NCBI GenBank assembly: GCA_028289345.1
Contig: JANQQL010000005.1
Span: 101,206-165,205 of the forward strand
Direction: 5' to 3'
From: Planctomycetota bacterium
GTDB taxonomy: Bacteria; Planctomycetota; B15-G4; SIAN01
Length of the DNA: 64,000 nucleotides
The notes beneath the pieces were generated by a model. The model had not been told where the DNA came from, searched no databases, and was given only the letters and a program-made list of their open reading frames with translations. Shown piece by piece: positions 43,039-64,000 of this stretch (the stretch's first letter is position 1; each line of letters begins with the position of its first letter). Both the position numbers and the translations under genes were made by a program.

Positions 43039-43921
43039 CCCCGTAGGGCACAAGAACTTGGACGGCTTCCCGGAAAACGCCGACCAAGGCTGCGCGGGTA
43101 ACATCCGCGGGACATGATCCCCGTCCTTCAACCATTTCACGTGCTCGCCGTCATCCTCGCGGGCTGGTCCAATCGGCATCAGTTCCGAGTGATCGAGTAC
43201 TTGCTGGAAGAAAACCGAGCCTTCAAGCAACAGATACGCAAGCTGCTGAATCAGGTTGCAAACATTGTCACACCCGACACAATCATGCGCTGGCACCGAC
43301 GCCTGATCGCCCTGAAGTGGACCTACGAGAGGGGCAAACCGGGTCACCCGGGAACGGCTGAAGTATGGACACCCCAAGGACGGAAGACTTACTACATCCT
43401 CTTCGTCATGGAGCTCACCACGAGGAGAGTCACCATCGCTGGCATCACACCCCATCCTCACGGCCGATTCATGGATCGAGTCGCGCGAAACCTCACTGAT
43501 GAAGAAGACGGATTCCTGATCGGCAAGCGGTTCTTGATCCACGATCGAGATACGAAATACACCGACCAGTTTCGTCGAACCCTAGGAGACGCTGGCGTCG
43601 AGTCTGTTCCATCCCCAGCCAAATCGCCCAATTGCAACGCGTACGCCGAACGGTTCGTTCGATCCATCAAGGAGGAATGTCTCAGTCGAATGATCTTCTT
43701 CGGCGAGGAATCACTGAGACGGTCGGTCACTGAATACGCCGTGCACTACCACTCTGAGCGGAACCACCAAGGGCTCGGGAACGAGCTGATCGAACCCGAG
43801 CTCCGGCCCTACCGAATGGATGGACGTGTTCGATACCGGAGCAGACTGGGCGGCTTGCCGCGCTTCTACCATCGGCAGGTTGTCTGACATTGCCCGCGAT
43901 TGAGTTCTTGCACCCTACTGG
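43039..43921 (+). mobile_element. IS family B copy 2 (internally deleted, both ends present)
   Basis: CCCCGTAGGGCACAAGAAC ... GAGTTCTTGCACCCTACTGG. The 257-aa ORF 43114-43887 lacks the segment between KWTYERGKPGHPG and TAEVWTP. Confidence 0.8.
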
Positions 43922-49839: not shown

Positions 49840-50922
49840 ATGGACAATTCAGGCATGATGCCTGAAACGATTCACCTCCAACTCCTCCTCGCAACGTTCG
49901 CCGGCTGGGTCAATCGCGAACAAGCACAAGCCATCGAGTACCTCAGGGAGGAAAATCGGGTTCTCAAAGAACAACTCAGGGGCAAGCGCCTCCGTCTGAC
50001 CGATGACCAGCGACGTCGACTTGCCGCGAAGGGCAAGAAGCTCGACCGCAAACTCCTTGGCAAGGTCGCCACCATCGTCACCCCGGACACCATCCTCCGC
50101 TGGCATCATCGCTTGATCGCCGCCAAGTGGACCTAACCCACTAAGAAGCGAGTCGGACGACCCGGAATCATGAAGCGGATCCGCGAGCTCATCGTCCGCA
50201 TGGCAACAGAGAACTCGAGCTGGGGATACTGCAGGATCCAGGGAGAGCTCAAGGGCCTCGGCCACCGGGTTGCCACCAGCACGATCGCAAAGACCCTCAA
50301 GGAGCACGGGATCAAGCCAGCGCCTGAACGCCCCACCACATGGCGGACCTTTCTCGAGTCCCACGCCCAAGTCATCGGTGCCACCGATTTCTTCACGACC
50401 GAAGTCTGGACCGCTCGGGGCCTCGTCACGTACTACACCGTGTTCGTGATCGACATCGCGACGCGCGCCGTTCACATTGCGGGAACGACAACCAAGCCGG
50501 ACTCGCAGTTCATGGCCCAAATCGCTCGCAACCTTACCGACTGCGTCGATGGCTTACTCCTTGGAAAACGCTATCTGATTCTCGACCGTGACGGGAAGTA
50601 CTGCCCAGCGTTCAAGGAGATCATCAAGGCAGCCGGCGTGCAGATCATCCTGACCAGCTACCAGGCTCCGAATATGAACTCGTTCGCGGAGCGCTTCGTC
50701 CTTTCCATCATAAGAGAGTGCCTCGGCCGCATGATCTTCGTTGGCGAGAGTTCGCTGCATCGAGCCCTTCGCCAGTTCGTCACTCATTACCATGCGGAGA
50801 GGCCACATCAGGGCCTCGGTAACGAGCGGGTCAACGGCCAGACCTCTACAGAGTCCAGCCAAGTCATGGTTCGAGAACGCCTTGGCGGGCTCCTCAAGCA
50901 CTATCACCGTCGCGCTGCGTAG
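49840..50922 (+). pseudogene. rve/DDE transposase interrupted by one in-frame TAA
   Basis: ORFs 49690-50136 and 50170-50922 are in the same frame. TAA at 50134-50136 sits where copy 2 has Tyr (KWT-Y-ERGKPG). Confidence 0.75.
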
Positions 50923-56913: not shown

Positions 56914-58005
56914 ATGGCTGCGCTGTTACAACTCATGCATCTGCTCCGATCACTCGCCAGAGATCGCGACGCCCTTGCCTTGGAGAACATCGCTCTTCGT
57001 CATCAGCTCGCGGTTCTGAAACGCACGGTGAAGCGGCACACGTCAAAGACTCCGACCGGATCTTCTGGATCATGATGCGCCGATTCCTCAAGGATTGGCA
57101 GGACGCCCTGATCTTCGTCAAACCGGAAACGGTGATTCGCTGGCACCGCAAAAAGGATGGAAGTACTATTGGAAACGGAAGTCCAAGCCGAAGAAGGTTG
57201 GACGGCCTCCCATCAGCCTCAAGCTCATTCACTTGATTCGTCGTCTTTCGAAAGAGAACCCTCTCTGGGGCACGCCTCAGATCCGGGACGAACTGGCCCT
57301 CTTGGGACACGAGGTGGCCGAGTCCACCGTCGCGAAGTACATGGTGCACACGCCTGACCCCGGTCGGCAACAGTCCTGGCGCACCTTCCTCAAGAACCAC
57401 CTGGATGCAACGGCAGCGTGCGACTTCTTCACGGTGCCTACTCTGACGTTCAAGACCCTGTACTGCTTCGTGGTGCTGTCGCATTGCCGCCGCCGAATCC
57501 TCCACACCGGTGTCACCAAGAACCCGACCGCCGAGTGGACGGCCCGCCAGCTCCTGGAGGCGTTTCCTGGCGACGGCGCGGAGCCCGAGTACCTCATCCA
57601 TGACCGGGACTCGATTTATGGCGGCGTGGTCGACGATCAGCTTGAGATCCTACAGATCGACCCCGTCGTCACGGCCAGACGGAGTCCCTGGCAGAACGGC
57701 TACTGCGAACGCGTCATCGGATCGATTCGACGCGAGTGCACACGGACCATGTGATTCCACTAGGTGAGAAGCACTTGCTACGACTTCTCTATGAGTATAC
57801 CGCGTACTACAACGAATCGCGGACACACCTAGCGCTAGACGGGAACTCACCTGTCGCTCGCGACGTCGAGCACGCCGACCGCTTGATTTCGGAGCGTGTG
57901 CTTGGCGGGCTTCATCACCGCTATCGCGCGGTCGCGTGACACGCACCCCGATTTCGTCTACTCTTACCAACAGAATTGGCTCGGGACGACGTTTTCGGGA
58001 AGCAA
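56914..58005 (+). mobile_element. IS family A copy with a multiply frameshifted rve transposase
   Basis: MAALLQLMHLLRSLARDRDALALENIALRHQLAVLKRTVKR... then frame changes near 57040, 57150 and 57745. Core is ACDFFTV...IHDRDSIYG...PWQNGYCERVIGSIRREC. The tail matches 13020-13400. Confidence 0.75.
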
Positions 58006-58189: not shown

Positions 58190-59416
58190 ATGGCAACCAG
58201 CATCATCGTTGATGGATATGGCTCTGGTGGATTACTCGCCCCGGAATTCCGAAGCAAAGGAATAGGCGCCGTCCACATCGAAACAGGGACTGCCTTGAAA
58301 GCGCTCTGTCGCTCCCACCAGCCGAGTGATTACTCCGCGGAATTTCAGCTTCTGCAGTATGAGTCTATCGAGCTCCTTGCGAAACAGCTTCGCTCATTGG
58401 ACCCTATTGCAGTAGTCCCTGGCGTGGATAGCGGTGTAGCTGTCGCAGATTCTCTTGCACACCATCTTGGTTTACCGGGTAACGATCCAAGTACTAGCCC
58501 TTTACGCCGGGATAAGTTTGAGATGATCTCCCATCTGGCGCAATCTGATTGTCGTATGAGAAAATGCTGGCGCGTGCGTAACCTAGACGATCTGCGCAGG
58601 GTGGAACTAGAGACAGACGGTGGGCCCCTAGTCCTGAAGCCAACCATGCTTGCCGGTGGCCGCGGTCTAACGATTTGCCACACCGCCAGTGCTTTGCGCG
58701 CGGCCTGGGATAAGGTCCTCGAATGCAGTGAAGGCCCTGTGGCGGCTGCGATAGTCGAGGACTGGATCGAGGGAAGCGAGTATGAAGTGAACACGGTTAG
58801 CTGGAACGGCCGTCATGGAGTGACGGATCTATGGCAGTACGTAAAACGCAAGAATCAGCAAGGTGTTATTTATGACTGGGGTCGCCTAATCCCGTCGCGA
58901 GGGCGAGTCCAAGACACAATACTTGAATACACCAATAAGGTGCTTGATGAGCTCGGAGTTCGGTTCGGCGCGGCCCACACAGAAGTATGCATGGAGCAAG
59001 GGGGCCCAACACTCATTGAAGTTGGCGCAAGGCTCTGTGGGGGAAGGGCACCAGAAGTGGTTGCCCAATGCACCGGCTACGGACAGCACCAGGCCCTTGT
59101 CGACGCGTACAGCGAGGAAACAGCCTACGATCTTCCGGGTCGACACTATAAACACCGCTCGCTCTGCCTCAACGTCCACCTGATTTGCCCTGAAGATGGG
59201 CTAAGAATCTCTTCAGCTGGTGAGAAGGCGCTTAGAGACATGGATCACTGCTTGCGCGTTGACCTGCTCGAAGAGCCTCGGGAGCGATTACGGCGCACTA
59301 CGGACTTGCTGTCGTCACCAGGCACAGTCCGGTTTATCGCGGAAACCTGGGAAGTGCTTGCGCCCTGCATCGAGCACGTGCGCGAACTTGAATCGGAGAT
59401 CCTATACAAGCCCTAG
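58190..59416 (+). CDS. ATP-grasp domain protein
   Basis: 408 aa. PLVLKPTMLAGGRGLTIC, IVEDWIEGSEYEVNTV, AHTEVCMEQGGPTLIEVGARLCGG. Confidence 0.75.
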   Translation: MATSIIVDGYGSGGLLAPEFRSKGIGAVHIETGTALKALCRSHQPSDYSAEFQLLQYESIELLAKQLRSLDPIAVVPGVDSGVAVADSLAHHLGLPGNDPSTSPLRRDKFEMISHLAQSDCRMRKCWRVRNLDDLRRVELETDGGPLVLKPTMLAGGRGLTICHTASALRAAWDKVLECSEGPVAAAIVEDWIEGSEYEVNTVSWNGRHGVTDLWQYVKRKNQQGVIYDWGRLIPSRGRVQDTILEYTNKVLDELGVRFGAAHTEVCMEQGGPTLIEVGARLCGGRAPEVVAQCTGYGQHQALVDAYSEETAYDLPGRHYKHRSLCLNVHLICPEDGLRISSAGEKALRDMDHCLRVDLLEEPRERLRRTTDLLSSPGTVRFIAETWEVLAPCIEHVRELESEILYKP

Positions 59417-59477: not shown

Positions 59478-60656
59478 CTACCGGATGTCCCGCATATGCT
59501 GTTCTGCTGAATCGATAATCTGTCCCTGATGACTTTGAAGACTCTGTCCAGCGATCTGCTGCATCTCTCTGAGGAACGGGTCCTGAACGGATGTCTCTTG
59601 CCCGGAAATCTCTTCAAGAACGGCCAATGCCATAAATGGTACTGTCGCAGGACAGTAGCCCCCCTCGTGGAGCAGAACGAGCCTCCCAGAGCAGAGACGC
59701 ACTGATGACTCCATCATGCTCCTCGCCAGAAGCCTGAACGACTCACTATGTAAGAGCTGTCGCCCAAGGGGATCGTACGCACCCGCATCGAAGCCGCAGG
59801 CGACAATAATCAGATCTGGCTGAAACCTATGCAAAGCCGGCTCAACTACCCGGTGTATGGTGTCTAGATAAGCCTCGTGCCCTGAACCCGCAGGCAGTGG
59901 GACATTGAGGTTATACCCAAGCCCTGCCCCTCCGCCGCGATGCTCCAGAAGCCCTGAGCCCAGAGGATACAGGCGATCCTGGCGCACTGAGATCGTCAGC
60001 GTATTGGGATCATCCCAGAAAGCGTGCTCGGTGCCGTTGCCGTGATGCACATCCCAATCAACAAATGCAATACGGTCCACCTCGTGAATCAGGCGGGCAT
60101 GCAGAGCCGCCAGTACCCCGTTGTTGAATATGCAGAAGCCCATTCCTCTATCCGCCAGTGCGTGATGTCCCGGCGGCCTCGTGAGCGCGTATGCATTTTG
60201 CACCCTCGACGACATAACTTCGTCCACGGCAGAGATGGCTGCGCCCACTCCGAGACTCGCAATCTCGAATCCACCCTTACTCATCAAGGCGCCTTCGCCC
60301 GTATCGCCTCCGTATTGGTCACTCAACCGCTGAACGACTTGTAAGTAGCTTGCCGTATGAAATCGCTCAAGCTGCGAGAGAGTTGCTGGACGTGGCTCGA
60401 CTAGGGCGAGTGACGACATCATTCCGCTTACATCTACTAGATTCTTGATCCTGCGCTTACTTTCGGGCCCTTCAAAATGAGACCCGGGCTCGAGGTAACC
60501 GCCAGCGGCAAGAAAGCCTGAACTTGCCACGGCGCGATGCCACATGCAGCGCTCATGCCAGATGAACCCGGTAGTCAATTGCAGCGCGTCCTGTAGTCGT
60601 TTAGCGAGGCATTCGCTGGGGTGCCGCCTTCTTGGAGGGATCAATCGGCTCCACAT
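59478..60656 (-). CDS. histone-deacetylase-family (HDAC/acetylpolyamine amidohydrolase-like) hydrolase
   Basis: LTRPPGHHALADRGMGFCIFNN, VDWDVHHGNGTEHAFW. The start is uncertain; ATG 60656 would overlap the upstream ORF by 56 nt. Confidence 0.85.
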   Translation of the reverse strand: MWSRLIPPRRRHPSECLAKRLQDALQLTTGFIWHERCMWHRAVASSGFLAAGGYLEPGSHFEGPESKRRIKNLVDVSGMMSSLALVEPRPATLSQLERFHTASYLQVVQRLSDQYGGDTGEGALMSKGGFEIASLGVGAAISAVDEVMSSRVQNAYALTRPPGHHALADRGMGFCIFNNGVLAALHARLIHEVDRIAFVDWDVHHGNGTEHAFWDDPNTLTISVRQDRLYPLGSGLLEHRGGGAGLGYNLNVPLPAGSGHEAYLDTIHRVVEPALHRFQPDLIIVACGFDAGAYDPLGRQLLHSESFRLLARSMMESSVRLCSGRLVLLHEGGYCPATVPFMALAVLEEISGQETSVQDPFLREMQQIAGQSLQSHQGQIIDSAEQHMRDIR

Positions 60657-61706
60657 TCACAACATCTATACGCTCAAGCTTGCTAAAGACCGCCTCCAGA
60701 GTGAGTCCGGCGATATATGCGACAATCATCGCGAAGATGGCAATGAGGCGGAATCTAAGATTTAGCTCCTCAGCGAGAGATGGGGCTGTCGCCCATTGGG
60801 ACGCAGCGAACAATAGAGCAGAAACTAGCCCAGCTCCCGCACCGAGAGCAACGGTGCCCTCGACTGTGTATGCTGTCGCGGAAGTCACAGGCCTCCGGAG
60901 CTGGCGCAGGGTTTGGGTCAGCGCTCCCGCAATGCCCGCTAACATGGGTATCAGGAGAAAAGCCACTCCAAAGAAGGAGAGGGGGAGGCTCGTAAAGACC
61001 GCAACGGCAGCAAGTGCCGCAGCTCCCGCCAAGGATGCGATCGTCCATCGAGCAGTTGAGACTTCTAGACTCGCGTCACCCAAATTAGCGCTGATATGCC
61101 TCCGACCCAAGCTGTCAGAAATCGTACGCTGAAGCACGCCCGCACATGCTTCGGCATGCCCCTTTGGCCAAGGCTCTACGGCCAAGAGCGCGTGATCTTC
61201 TTCGGAGAGATCATCCGTGCTCAACCTCCACAACTCTTCCCCCGCACCACCGAATGAAGCAAGAGAAAGAACCGGTACTCCGAGCGCCATGCAAACGACT
61301 CCGGCTATGAGCGAGGATCTTCCGCCGCCAACTACGATCGCCGCATCGACCACGAGTAGCGTCTTAATGAACCCGATACACCATTGGGTACTTGGGCTCG
61401 GCCTTACCGAGAGCCAGCTTGCACCTCGCAGGAACTGGAGCTGCGGGGCTTCCAGATCGAGACCTACCCCTGCAGGCTGGTAAAGCACAACAGACTTCTT
61501 CTTTCCTGCTGCCCTAGCATAACCCCGCACTACGTCAAGTTCGACGAAGAGAACGGCTGCAGGGAGAACACCGCCAGGCCAAAACCAACCTTCGCAAGTG
61601 CCGCTCCCAACGACTCGCAGGATTCCGTTTTACCACCGGCATTGCGAATCGCTGGCTCGTAAGTTCGCGACGCATCGATGCTGCCAAATATTGCAACGGT
61701 CTTCAT
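60601..61706 (-). CDS. SLOG/LOG-like Rossmannoid domain fused to ~4 TM helices; reading frame broken near 61560-61585
   Basis: ATG 61706 gives MKTVAIFGS...ESLGAALAKVGFGLAVFS, then a stop. The adjacent frame continues LFVELDVVRGYARAAGKKKSVVLYQP...AAIVVGGGRSSLIAG...LASFGGAGEELW (LOG-type GGG and GGxGxxEE motifs), followed by hydrophobic helices. Confidence 0.7.
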
Positions 61707-62704
61707 TCTATGCTCGAAAGGGATAACTGGCCTGTATTATGAAGGATGGCTTGCCGCAAGAGTGATGATGCAAAATCCTCTCGCGCTCGATAGGTGTACG
61801 ACTCATCTGCTAATCCTTCCGACGTGAGGCCGATGTAAATCTTAGCACCGGCATCAGCACTTTCTCGCGCCAGTCCTAGCACGTCAGAGAGTCGCGGGGG
61901 TTGATACAATTCACTCGCGTTTTCGGCCGCTTTCCGCCACGGCGTGCCTCGGGCGGCGTACATTGGATTCAGCCGTATGGTCAGGTCGATGCTCCGCTTC
62001 GCGGACTCGGCAACAAGGTACGCGATTGAGTCTCGCGCCTCCTGGATAGCCTCGTCGTCTGACATGGTGGGCACGGGCTTGAAGAGAACATACGCCGTAA
62101 GCTCGGCGCCAGCGGCTTCCAATACGTCCAATCCATGCAGAAAAGTGTCGATGGGCTCCTGTTTGCCAAGCACCTCATCTCGTACCTGCTCATTGAGCGT
62201 CTCGAAGCCTGTCAGTACGTTGATCGTCTTTTGGCATGCTGCACGCGAAGCCAAGAGATTTTCGTCGTTAACAAATTCCAAACGAGACTCGAAAACGACC
62301 CGGCGTACGTTCGGTAGTTTGCGCGCGGAAGCTGCTATCTCAAGGAGCGAGTCGAGCGGAAACGTCGCGGGATCGAATACAGAGCCCTCGTTCGCAATGG
62401 TCAACCGGTCAATGAGCCCGAGGGCGTGGCGCACCTCGTGGATTACGAAACGGAATTGGCTTCTTAGATCCTCACCAGAGACGGGCTTGGCTGATGACTT
62501 GTGCGGCAGAGCACAGAAGTCACATGAGTAACGGCAACGTTTGGAGTTAAACAGCACTGCAAGGTCTTGCTCGCCTAGAAACTTTCGAAGAAGAAAGAAG
62601 TGCGGCTCATGGACCGTATCAGCTCCACCGCCCATCGCCTTAGGCGGCCCGAAGCTCCTGTAGCTCTTTTCAACAAAGCTCTCAAGATCGCCTACTAGGG
62701 ACAT
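61703..62704 (-). CDS. radical SAM enzyme
   Basis: 333 aa. CX3CX2C motif CRYSCDFC (nt 62513-62536) preceded by AVLFNSKR. The stop overlaps the SLOG ATG (ATGA at 61703-61706). Confidence 0.75.
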   Translation of the reverse strand: MSLVGDLESFVEKSYRSFGPPKAMGGGADTVHEPHFFLLRKFLGEQDLAVLFNSKRCRYSCDFCALPHKSSAKPVSGEDLRSQFRFVIHEVRHALGLIDRLTIANEGSVFDPATFPLDSLLEIAASARKLPNVRRVVFESRLEFVNDENLLASRAACQKTINVLTGFETLNEQVRDEVLGKQEPIDTFLHGLDVLEAAGAELTAYVLFKPVPTMSDDEAIQEARDSIAYLVAESAKRSIDLTIRLNPMYAARGTPWRKAAENASELYQPPRLSDVLGLARESADAGAKIYIGLTSEGLADESYTYRAREDFASSLLRQAILHNTGQLSLSSIE

Positions 62705-62707
62705 TAC

Positions 62708-64000
62708 TCATTCCTCTTCTGTTGACTCGAAATCTTGCAGAGCGGTTGTCAGGATTTCGAAAATGTCTTTTTCTACGGACGACAACGAGTACTTGAAAGA
62801 CCGGCGAGTGGAGAGGTCAAATGGCATCCTTGTTTGGTCTTGTCGTACTATGAGTGCGGGTTTACCTAGGGCGTGAGCCAGCCCAAGCTCGTAGAGGACG
62901 TTTGGACTGTATGTCGAAATGTCGACAACAATTACTGTCGATCGGCAAATGAGACGCCAGATCTCCTTCAGCGCGTCTGGGTCCTGGCGCGAGTGGTCCG
63001 CGCGAACGGTGTGCCACCCCGCCTCACGCGCGCCGACCTCGAGGGCATCGAGCACGTCGGTAGACCAAGCTTCCTCATATGGCATGCAAATGAAGGCCGT
63101 TTTCTTATCCGCCTTCGCCCATGTCTCTGAGGCGGAGAAGAGTGGCGCAGTAGAAACACGGGCACAGGAGTCACCGAGAAAATCCAGGTGCTGGATTGAC
63201 AGGTCACGAATGCCAATAGCCTCAAGGAGCGGGCTGGCTCTTGGGGACTGCCGCTCAGACCGAGTCCGAAACGCAGCAAAGGCGCCTGTGGCGGCAGCTC
63301 GAAGCGCGCGAGACAGAAAGCGCGCGAGCAGAGCGGATAGCGCCAGCAGGACGAGAAGCAACGCTAACCCGGACATGTCGTTAGCGTAGGCCGTCGTGGC
63401 GACAACAGTTGAACAGATCAGGGTTGTTAGTGGAGGTATCATGTTGACCAACAGCAAGCCAGAGTTCTTGTTCGTGGCAGAGGCCTCGGCAATTCGTTCG
63501 AAGAAAGAGGCGGTACCAACAATCAGCAGTAATTGTGAAAGCGTCCAGGCAATCTCCGCTAGGCTATTGGGAGAGCCCTCGTTAGACAGCTCGCGAGCAT
63601 TGAAGTAGAGATCGGCTGCTATGAGCAGGGCGAATGAGACTGTTATCGCCGGGACCACGAAGTTTGACACCGCTAAGGCAGCCATGCAAAGCGCCAGGCC
63701 CACCAGACCGAGCCACACATATAGGTAGACAAAGACGTCTTGAGCAAGCTCGGGCGCTTGGAGTCGTAACACGCTTGCGTGATACGCGATGAACACGACA
63801 AAGAGCCCGGCACTAGTGACGATGCCCGATATCGCGCCGGTGTATCGAGCATGCCGCACCACTCCACGGCGAAGCTCGTTGACCCAGAAGTACACCCAAA
63901 TCAGAAGAACCAGTAGGTATGGGACCCTGTTGGTGATGATGCTTAGCGCTGGTCGCCCCGCATCGGCGGTCAGATTCAGCTCGAGACCCCACGTCAGGTT
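62708..64000 (-). CDS. polytopic membrane protein with C-terminal nucleoside 2-deoxyribosyltransferase/TIR-like domain; 5' end probably off-window
   Basis: The frame stays open from 63895 to the window edge and remains hydrophobic. The C-terminal domain (nt ~62741-63106) reads KKTAFICMPYEE...STVIVVDISTYSPNVLYELGLAHALGKPALIV...PFD. Confidence 0.7.
   Translation of the reverse strand, partial: NLTWGLELNLTADAGRPALSIITNRVPYLLVLLIWVYFWVNELRRGVVRHARYTGAISGIVTSAGLFVVFIAYHASVLRLQAPELAQDVFVYLYVWLGLVGLALCMAALAVSNFVVPAITVSFALLIAADLYFNARELSNEGSPNSLAEIAWTLSQLLLIVGTASFFERIAEASATNKNSGLLLVNMIPPLTTLICSTVVATTAYANDMSGLALLLVLLALSALLARFLSRALRAAATGAFAAFRTRSERQSPRASPLLEAIGIRDLSIQHLDFLGDSCARVSTAPLFSASETWAKADKKTAFICMPYEEAWSTDVLDALEVGAREAGWHTVRADHSRQDPDALKEIWRLICRSTVIVVDISTYSPNVLYELGLAHALGKPALIVRQDQTRMPFDLSTRRSFKYSLSSVEKDIFEILTTALQDFESTEEE

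Follow-up and report, generated by a model that had tools for sequence, protein, structure and literature searches.

RESULTS AND DISCUSSION

Organization of the operon

We analyzed a stretch of 64,000 nucleotides from a Planctomycetota bacterium (GenBank assembly GCA_028289345.1, contig JANQQL010000005.1, positions 101,206 to 165,205 of the forward strand), which we call the window. Its end carries the larger part of an operon of five genes. In the order of the operon, these encode a deaminase, a transmembrane (TM) protein with a domain of the nucleoside 2-deoxyribosyltransferase (NDT) type, a radical S-adenosylmethionine (SAM) enzyme, a protein made of a SLOG domain and four TM helices (SLOG-4TM), and a hydrolase of the histone deacetylase (HDAC) family. 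A convergent ATP-grasp gene follows. Relatives of these genes are conserved elsewhere in two separate contexts, and the locus may be a one-off operon in which the two were interleaved. The four genes that lie in the window are numbered g1 to g4. As the initial annotation of this DNA had observed, g1 runs off the window. The extension past position 64000 was read on L001, a Logan contig (run SRR20820731) that matches 12,298 bp of the window with 100% identity. The features are the following, with window coordinates unless L001 is named.

L001 5156-5665, plus strand of L001, beyond window position 64000: deaminase, fifth gene of the operon, 169 aa (Pfam dCMP_cyt_deam_1)
62708-63895, frame open to 64000, minus strand: g1, open reading frame (ORF) of a polytopic membrane protein with a C-terminal DNPH1/NDT-like domain
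L001 5688-7229, same L001 strand as the deaminase: g1 at full length, 513 aa
61703-62704, minus strand: g2, radical SAM enzyme of 333 aa, RaSEA/queuine-lyase-like
60601-61706, minus strand: g3, SLOG plus four TM helices, frameshifted, in pieces 61530-61706 (58 aa) and 60601-61530 (309 aa)
59478-60656, minus strand: g4, HDAC-family amidohydrolase, similar to HDAC-like amidohydrolases (HDAH); start probably the TTG at 60578
58190-59416, plus strand: ATP-grasp ligase, PRK07206/DdaF-like (Pfam ATP-grasp families), convergent to the operon
L001 822-3998, minus strand of L001, beyond window position 64000: TIR_2 protein of 1058 aa (Pfam E = 3.8e-7)

On L001, the deaminase gene ends 22 nt upstream of g1 and on the same strand. 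A 3-nt spacer separates g1 from g2 (62705-62707) and an ATGA overlap joins g2 to g3 (61703-61706), both read directly in the sequence. Between g3 and g4 there is either a 56-nt overlap or, if g4 starts at the TTG at 60578 (preceded by AGGA), a gap of 22 nt. The four packed minus-strand ORFs, the spacer, the ATGA overlap, and the overlap or gap at 60601-60656 are thus all present where the initial annotation had placed them. A scan for promoters and terminators inside the operon gave no signal above chance. The 1058-aa protein, which has its TIR_2 domain at the C terminus, is divergent from the operon and lies about 1.2 kb upstream of the deaminase gene.

The radical SAM enzyme and its deaminase partner

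The canonical CX3CX2C cluster motif from which g2 had been annotated as a radical SAM enzyme lies at 62513-62536 (CRYSCDFC). Its three cysteines (C57, C61, and C64) are invariant in an alignment of 29 sequences, which upholds the assignment; the match to Pfam Radical_SAM has E = 0.001. The best profile matches are RaSEA, the beta subunit of archaeosine synthase (NCBIfam TIGR01210, E = 5.8e-26 with g2), and queuine lyase (PDB 6p78, 2.4e-7 with the profile of the g2 family). However, g2 differs from RaSEA in several respects. Its score of 91.5 bits is far below the equivalog cut-off of 212.15 bits, no ArcS-like gene accompanies it, and its partner is a deaminase of the cytidine deaminase (CDA) fold rather than ArcS. 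The family also differs from RaSEA and queuine lyase in its genomic contexts, which are nonribosomal peptide synthetase (NRPS) clusters and other biosynthetic clusters. The initial annotation had brought up prokaryotic viperins as radical SAM enzymes that make modified nucleotides. A viperin-like nature of g2 is not supported: the nearest characterized relatives are RaSEA and queuine lyase, no viperin (pVip) model matched, and PADLOC gives only PDC-M51A, with E = 0.029.

We identified 234 homologues of g2, at roughly 45-63% identity, across many phyla, and surveyed the neighborhoods of 30 genome loci and several metagenome contigs. The deaminase of the operon has the zinc motif HAE…CEPCxMC of a CDA-fold, TadA/guanine-deaminase-like enzyme, and it is the conserved partner of the radical SAM gene. 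The two closest homologues of g2 (60-63% identity) have, directly upstream, a deaminase of 164-167 aa that is 55-56% identical to that of the operon. Overall, a deaminase is present in 14 of 33 radical SAM loci, in 13 of them within about 1.6 kb and mostly adjacent or overlapping. Most of these deaminase-bearing loci also encode a carbamoyltransferase, a YqcI_YcgG protein, a 2-oxoglutarate (2OG) oxygenase, and a two-module NRPS. Elsewhere, the radical SAM gene is accompanied by genes for a ThiF-like protein and a 4HBT thioesterase, or by one for an aldehyde dehydrogenase, for an ATP-grasp protein, or for a fragment of an Orn/Arg decarboxylase. BLAST and hidden Markov model (HMM) searches of the 30 genome loci revealed no relative of g1, g3, g4, or the ATP-grasp gene. 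Hence, the co-occurrence of the radical SAM gene with SLOG-TM and NDT-TM genes, on which the initial annotation had wished to see its proposal checked, was never observed in these loci. For g2, the homologues lie instead in NRPS and other small-molecule clusters, the kind of placement that the same annotation had named as speaking against a conflict system. The radical SAM family was not found in IMG/VR contigs.

The pair of a RaSEA-like radical SAM enzyme and a CDA-fold deaminase is thus widespread and apparently uncharacterized, and it stands in a conserved NRPS cluster in Actinomycetota, Pseudomonadota, and Acidobacteriota. This cluster (L002-L009, L011-L013, L015, L084-L086) combines the radical SAM gene with a deaminase of about 200-220 aa, the carbamoyltransferase, the YqcI_YcgG protein, the 2OG oxygenase, and the two-module NRPS, which contains a methyltransferase domain. 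Its hosts are Streptomyces, Saccharopolyspora, Frankia, Mycoavidus, Ca. Paraburkholderia calva, Azospirillum, Arhodomonas, and an acidobacterium. In the literature on this cluster and on TIGR01210, we identified no characterized or named product. Two other contexts were observed. In Chloroflexia and Ktedonobacteria (L016, L019, L020, L024-L026, L029), the radical SAM gene is flanked by genes for a ThiF-domain protein of about 665 aa and a 4HBT-type thioesterase of about 170 aa. Downstream of the closest radical SAM homologue (L039, 2681-3484), there is a 267-aa protein with a hydrophobic-looking N terminus, possibly a TM helix, and with no match in Pfam or PADLOC.

The SLOG-4TM protein and its frame break

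The initial annotation had described g3 as frame-broken, and the break is real in the two available sequences. The repaired protein matches P0125, an intact homologue of 381 aa, at 30% identity over 97% of its length. This alignment takes in both pieces, and the two ORFs of the window are therefore parts of one gene; the identical contig L001 agrees. The break lies near 61555-61566, at a CCC run (61562-61564), and is consistent with a 1-nt deletion. A programmed frameshift was considered and rejected, because the sequence around the break contains no slippery heptamer and the homologues are single ORFs. The motifs VVGGGRSS and FGGAGEELW can be read directly in the sequence, and hydropathy gives four TM helices.

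Word-indexed homologue searches returned almost nothing for g1 or the repaired g3, and g3 seemed to be an orphan before an exhaustive HMMER search was made. This search raised the number of relatives to at least 661, nearly all of 340-400 aa, and 169 of these matched at E <= 1e-30. The protein of the window aligns over the full length of its family and is, judged by its sequence, the most divergent member. It keeps 39 of 55 family-conserved positions, as against a median of 50 and a minimum of 42 in the 92 relatives compared. Together with the frameshift, this suggests that g3 is degenerating.

Neither g3 nor P0125 has a Pfam match, even at E <= 10. Pfam SLOG models matched 5 of 93 family members, four weakly to SLOG cluster2 and one to SLOG cluster4 (best E, 9.6e-4). 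The SLOG superfamily has a Rossmannoid alpha/beta fold that is common to LOG, DprA, the C terminus of ThsA, and the N terminus of TRPM. The fold was examined on P0125, not on the broken copy of the window. The AlphaFold2 model of this homologue, made with 93 family sequences (pLDDT 94.6, pTM 0.81), has an alpha/beta domain at its N terminus, along with a long helix and four TM helices. With the N-terminal domain, Foldseek retrieved from the PDB TM1055, the SLOG domain of BcThsA with 3'cADPR (E = 1.9e-4, TM-score 0.65 on the target), LOG, a Moco carrier protein, the N-terminal regions of TRPM2, TRPM5, and TRPM8, and DprA. This placement supports, at the level of the predicted fold, the initial description of g3 as a SLOG domain followed by about four TM helices. 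The same description had likened the protein to the LSDAT families. The model does resemble the TRPM regions, but LSDAT_prok and LSDAT_euk matched in no Pfam scan of g3, P0125, or the 93 family members, and this part of the description is not supported.

Gene neighborhoods of the SLOG-4TM family

We examined 42 metagenome loci of the g3 family, found with an alignment of nine sequences; 38 of them had enough downstream sequence to be informative. In 17 of these 38, a soluble protein of about 461 aa is encoded directly downstream on the same strand, at -22 to +7 nt from the g3-family gene in intact examples. At its C terminus, this partner carries TIR_2 (Pfam E = 7e-16). The profile of the g1 C-terminal domain picks out a domain in its middle that seems, by eye, to have lost the catalytic Glu (…LYAAAHALGLP…). 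In L067, the gene upstream of the g3-family member encodes a g1-type NDT-like domain in which the Glu is kept (…NVYYEIG…), fused to TPR-S (E = 2e-14 with an NDT HMM). A DNPH1-type domain whose catalytic motif is intact therefore recurs beside the SLOG-4TM family. Radical SAM, deaminase, and HDAC genes were absent from all 42 loci.

A preprint of December 2025 (10.64898/2025.12.03.692087, Tables S1 and S2) names "SLOG and 4TM" among its putative Thoeris effectors and reports that two examples tested in E. coli gave no defense. The TIR of the ~461-aa partner is 49-78% identical to that of the preprint's Ca. Nitrospira nitrosa example, which indicates that the g3 family is this "SLOG and 4TM" family. 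We have thus recovered, independently and from metagenomes, a large family with its TIR partner, which supports a prediction that failed its only functional test. The gene of the window has the same architecture, a SLOG domain and then four TM helices. It differs in being frameshifted, in lacking the usual ~461-aa TIR, and in having as neighbors a TM-anchored NDT-like protein, a radical SAM enzyme, and an HDAC-family enzyme. The likeness extends to type I Thoeris (ThsB TIR with ThsA SIR2-SLOG), through the predicted match to the SLOG domain of BcThsA and through the linkage with TIR. In contrast to ThsA, the output part of g3 is four TM helices and not SIR2, and no PADLOC Thoeris model matches. 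For the g3 family, the predicted role is that of a membrane effector, which a signal of the ADP-ribose type made by the TIR would gate. Finally, the gene fusion of L067 resembles ThsI, the "CMP hydrolase and TPR" effector of type VIII Thoeris.

The g3 family is covered by no PADLOC model; the program returned nothing for g2, g3, and g4 and did not classify the operon. The initial annotation knew the four-gene combination as no named defense system, and this still holds for the whole; its SLOG-4TM/TIR component, however, is now listed as putative Thoeris in the preprint above.

Several further observations concern this family. By eye, the N-terminal region of the ~461-aa partner is TIR-like (L044, L045, L049, L055, L058, L059, L068, L076-L078, L080). 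SLOG-4TM genes of other loci lie among unrelated genes and have no adjacent ~461-aa TIR (L034, L048, L051, L057, L062-L066, L069, L072, L073). An ORF upstream of P0125 (L034, 1-600) has an NDT-like layout by eye (…VIADVTNPKSSPLELQ…) and no significant profile match, and we did not count it as evidence. One family copy is carried by a Streptomyces plasmid, beside recombinases and a large TPR protein; the small ORF downstream contains no TIR. A phage origin was considered and not retained, as the IMG/VR contigs yielded no member of the radical SAM or the g3 family.

The membrane-anchored DNPH1-like protein

The superfamily of nucleoside 2-deoxyribosyltransferases and DNPH1 has a flavodoxin-like fold and a catalytic Glu in the motif (Y/F)E(L/I)G. 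The C-terminal domain of g1 (about 62708-63105) contains the motif STYSPNVLYELGLAHALGKP, read directly in the sequence at 62858-62920. Profile comparisons vary in strength. The match of g1 to Pfam Nuc_deoxyrib_tr (PF05014) has E = 0.0023 and 18.5 bits, below the gathering cut-off of 28.8. The PADLOC "Effector TIR" model PDLC00733 matches the C-terminal 67 residues at E = 1.2e-8, and there is no Pfam match to TIR, TIR_2, or ThsB_TIR. A profile built from the domain and its three homologues matches DNPH1/Rcl (6e-7), with the alignment running through YELG...GKP. DNPH1 and the CMP N-glycosidase BcmB are among the best Foldseek matches of the AlphaFold2 model of the domain, whose pLDDT of 69 is moderate. 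By its motif and its predicted fold, then, this domain belongs to the NDT/DNPH1 superfamily, and the NDT/TIR-like assignment of the initial annotation holds.

The resemblance to DNPH1/Rcl, BcmB, and MilB covers the YELG with the catalytic Glu and the GKP, and the predicted model superposes on DNPH1 and BcmB. Unlike these enzymes, the domain scores below the Pfam threshold and is fused to a membrane domain. The full-length protein has about eight hydrophobic segments, which by hydropathy would make roughly 8-9 TM helices; at least six had been foreseen from the part inside the window. In Pfam and homologue searches, the membrane domain has no detectable relatives and matches no transporter family, and a collection of 5.8 billion protein clusters contains no full-length homologue of g1. 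Only three homologues other than g1 itself were found (P0122-P0124), and they match the last ~110 residues alone. Their genes stand beside genes for ADH, MFS, and glycogen-synthase-like proteins (the last read from the translation) or lie on very small contigs. One of these three (L089, SRR20820740) comes from a run whose accession neighbors that of L001 (SRR20820731), which suggests the same study or habitat.

The HDAC-family hydrolase and the ATP-grasp ligase

Gene g4 was correctly assigned to the HDAC family, with 270.8 bits (above the gathering score) and E = 1.9e-80 against Pfam Hist_deacetyl (PF00850). In the PDB, it comes closest to dimethoate hydrolase, propanil hydrolase, and bacterial HDAH, with matches over nearly its full length (1e-110 to 1e-87). 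For this family of amidohydrolases, we found no link to TIR/SLOG systems. The ATP-grasp gene matches the NCBIfam models PRK07206 (9e-82) and DdaF (2e-53), in both cases below the cut-off. In L040, an ATP-grasp gene overlaps the stop codon of a radical SAM homologue. It is possible that the convergent ligase of the window is a member of the small-molecule module described below.

Two proposed modules in one operon

How should this combination be understood? We favor the view that the locus is a one-off operon interleaving two modules that are conserved separately elsewhere, and give it about an even chance. The modules have no overlap in the loci surveyed elsewhere: there is no relative of g1, g3, or the HDAC gene in the radical SAM loci, and no radical SAM or deaminase gene in the g3-family loci. 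What the data show is the identity of the domains, the frameshift, and a pattern of conservation that is separate for each module.

The first module would be Thoeris-like and consist of an NDT/TIR-type domain and a SLOG-4TM protein (g1 and g3). The g3-family protein may act as a ligand-gated membrane effector answering a nucleotide-derived signal, as suggested by the match to the ThsA SLOG fold and by the linkage with TIR. The other component, g1, is predicted to carry a nucleotide N-glycosidase domain of the DNPH1/NDT type on a polytopic membrane anchor. No TIR gene adjoins g3 in the window, where the NDT-like g1 is two genes upstream. The 1058-aa TIR_2 protein seen on L001, divergent and about 3.2 kb from g3, could be the TIR partner of g3. 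In the source genome, this module is probably defunct, since g3 is frameshifted and the most divergent of its family.

The second module would serve small-molecule chemistry. It would comprise the CDA-fold deaminase and the RaSEA/queuine-lyase-like radical SAM enzyme, and probably also the HDAC-type amidohydrolase and the ATP-grasp ligase. Judging by the nearest characterized relatives, its most likely chemistry is radical cleavage of a C-N bond and deamination, on a purine-like, 7-deazapurine-like, or amidine-bearing metabolite. The two modules may well be independent of each other. The initial annotation had proposed a generator pair of NDT/TIR and radical SAM enzymes with a SLOG-TM effector. 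The association of NDT/TIR with SLOG-TM survives (the TIR in 17 of 38 loci, and L067), whereas the radical SAM enzyme pairs with the deaminase and not with g1.

Several points weigh against this interpretation. The genes of the two modules alternate and their junctions are very tight (22 nt, 3 nt, and a 4-nt overlap), so that an arrangement selected as a unit would be an easier account. About half of the g3-family genes lack an adjacent ~461-aa TIR partner, which means that the family may also act alone or with distant partners. No SLOG-4TM gene adjoins P0122-P0124, the closest homologues of the C-terminal domain of g1. The clade of radical SAM enzymes with a short deaminase was seen in three members only, on short contigs. 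Lastly, the frameshift of g3 is confirmed by L001 alone, an identical contig probably from the same sample, and could thus be an assembly error.

If the genes are indeed selected together, they might form an integrated, nucleotide-centered conflict system, essentially as the initial annotation had it. The deaminase and the radical SAM enzyme would make or alter a signal or toxin derived from a nucleobase or nucleotide, which the membrane-anchored NDT-like domain would set free or generate by cleaving an N-glycosidic bond. The SLOG-4TM protein would sense the molecule and damage the membrane, and the HDAC-type enzyme would reset or activate the molecule. The five genes on one strand, the junctions suggestive of translational coupling, and the interleaving of the modules are in line with this, as are the TIR_2 protein divergently upstream and the low-GC region rich in insertion sequence (IS) remnants. 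SLOG and NDT/TIR domains are typical parts of conflict systems and are linked in other loci, and the nearest characterized relatives of the radical SAM enzyme act on modified purine bases. Yet the five-gene interleaved arrangement has no second instance among the 30 genome and 42 metagenome loci examined, nor a full-length g1 homologue in the 5.8-billion-cluster collection. The radical SAM family sits in biosynthetic clusters, no known defense genes were detected nearby, the presumed effector is a pseudogene, and neither family appears in the viral contigs of IMG/VR. The lack of a second instance, the biosynthetic contexts, the lack of neighboring defense genes, and the decay of the SLOG gene lead us to hold this scheme unlikely while keeping the two-module view at an even chance. 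The more specific version, in which the five genes are one undescribed system whose radical SAM enzyme and deaminase make a modified signal or toxin of the purine type, processed by the DNPH1-like glycosidase and sensed by the SLOG-4TM protein, is quite improbable. Such a system would link Thoeris-like signaling to radical-SAM chemistry on nucleobases. Should the modules really cooperate, the operon would be the first TIR/SLOG-type system to use base chemistry of this kind and would widen the range of possible immune signals.

It is likewise doubtful that the operon is purely metabolic, i.e., that it makes a modified nucleobase or nucleoside. The NDT-like domain (like BcmB and MilB) and the SLOG domain (like LOG phosphoribohydrolases) would then be base-releasing N-glycosidases; this fits the matches of the g1 domain model to BcmB and DNPH1 and of the g3-family model to LOG enzymes, but a TIR gene, and not metabolic genes, accompanies the SLOG-4TM gene in nearly half of the informative loci of its family, and elsewhere the family is never found with a radical SAM enzyme, a deaminase, or an HDAC. 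The deaminase and the radical SAM enzyme would tailor the base, and the ATP-grasp and HDAC enzymes would add or remove an amide-linked group. The metabolic contexts of the radical SAM family, the recurrence of an ATP-grasp gene beside one of its members, and the small-molecule amidases that are the best matches of g4 all argue for such a pathway, although the locus has no glycosyltransferase or kinase typical of nucleoside-antibiotic clusters. The TM parts, finally, would act in export or import, yet the membrane domain of g1 matches no transporter family.

It is improbable that the SLOG gene is intact, its frame break a homopolymer assembly error, and the operon fully functional. The position of the break at a CCC run, the preserved glycine-rich motifs of the family, and the origin of the only confirming contig, which is 100% identical and may be from the same sample, speak for this view. 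Against it, two assemblies agree on the break, and apart from the break 16 of the 55 residues conserved in the family are missing from g3, a greater loss than in any of the 92 relatives.

Returning to the favored view of two interleaved modules, the domain parts and the SLOG-4TM/TIR link were already known or predicted. What is new here is the membrane-anchored DNPH1-like partner and its splice with the radical SAM/deaminase pair. The locus, seen once and damaged, is of interest as an oddity and not as a proven new system.

Surroundings of the operon

The initial annotation had also pointed out that the region is richer in AT and adjoins an IS remnant, and both features were recovered. The GC content is 0.54-0.58 at 58-64 kb, against about 0.60-0.66 over the first 37 kb of the window. 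The remnant, identified by its Pfam integrase-core matches, is the following.

57095-57939, plus strand: IS remnant, split integrase-core/HTH transposase (Pfam HTH_32, rve_3, HTH_21, and rve on split ORFs)

Between 53260 and 56707, a gene for an ECF sigma factor overlaps that of a Ser/Thr kinase (951 aa) rich in TPR repeats. This kinase strongly matches the PADLOC PD-T4-6 models, which we attribute to the kinase domain they have in common. A defense island was considered and rejected, because the ORFs nearby have no other PADLOC matches. Three IS copies or remnants with an rve_3 integrase core lie within 15 kb (43114-43887, 50170-50922, and 57095-57939). They stand in a lower-GC block of about 37-64 kb, which marks this part of the genome as a variable region.

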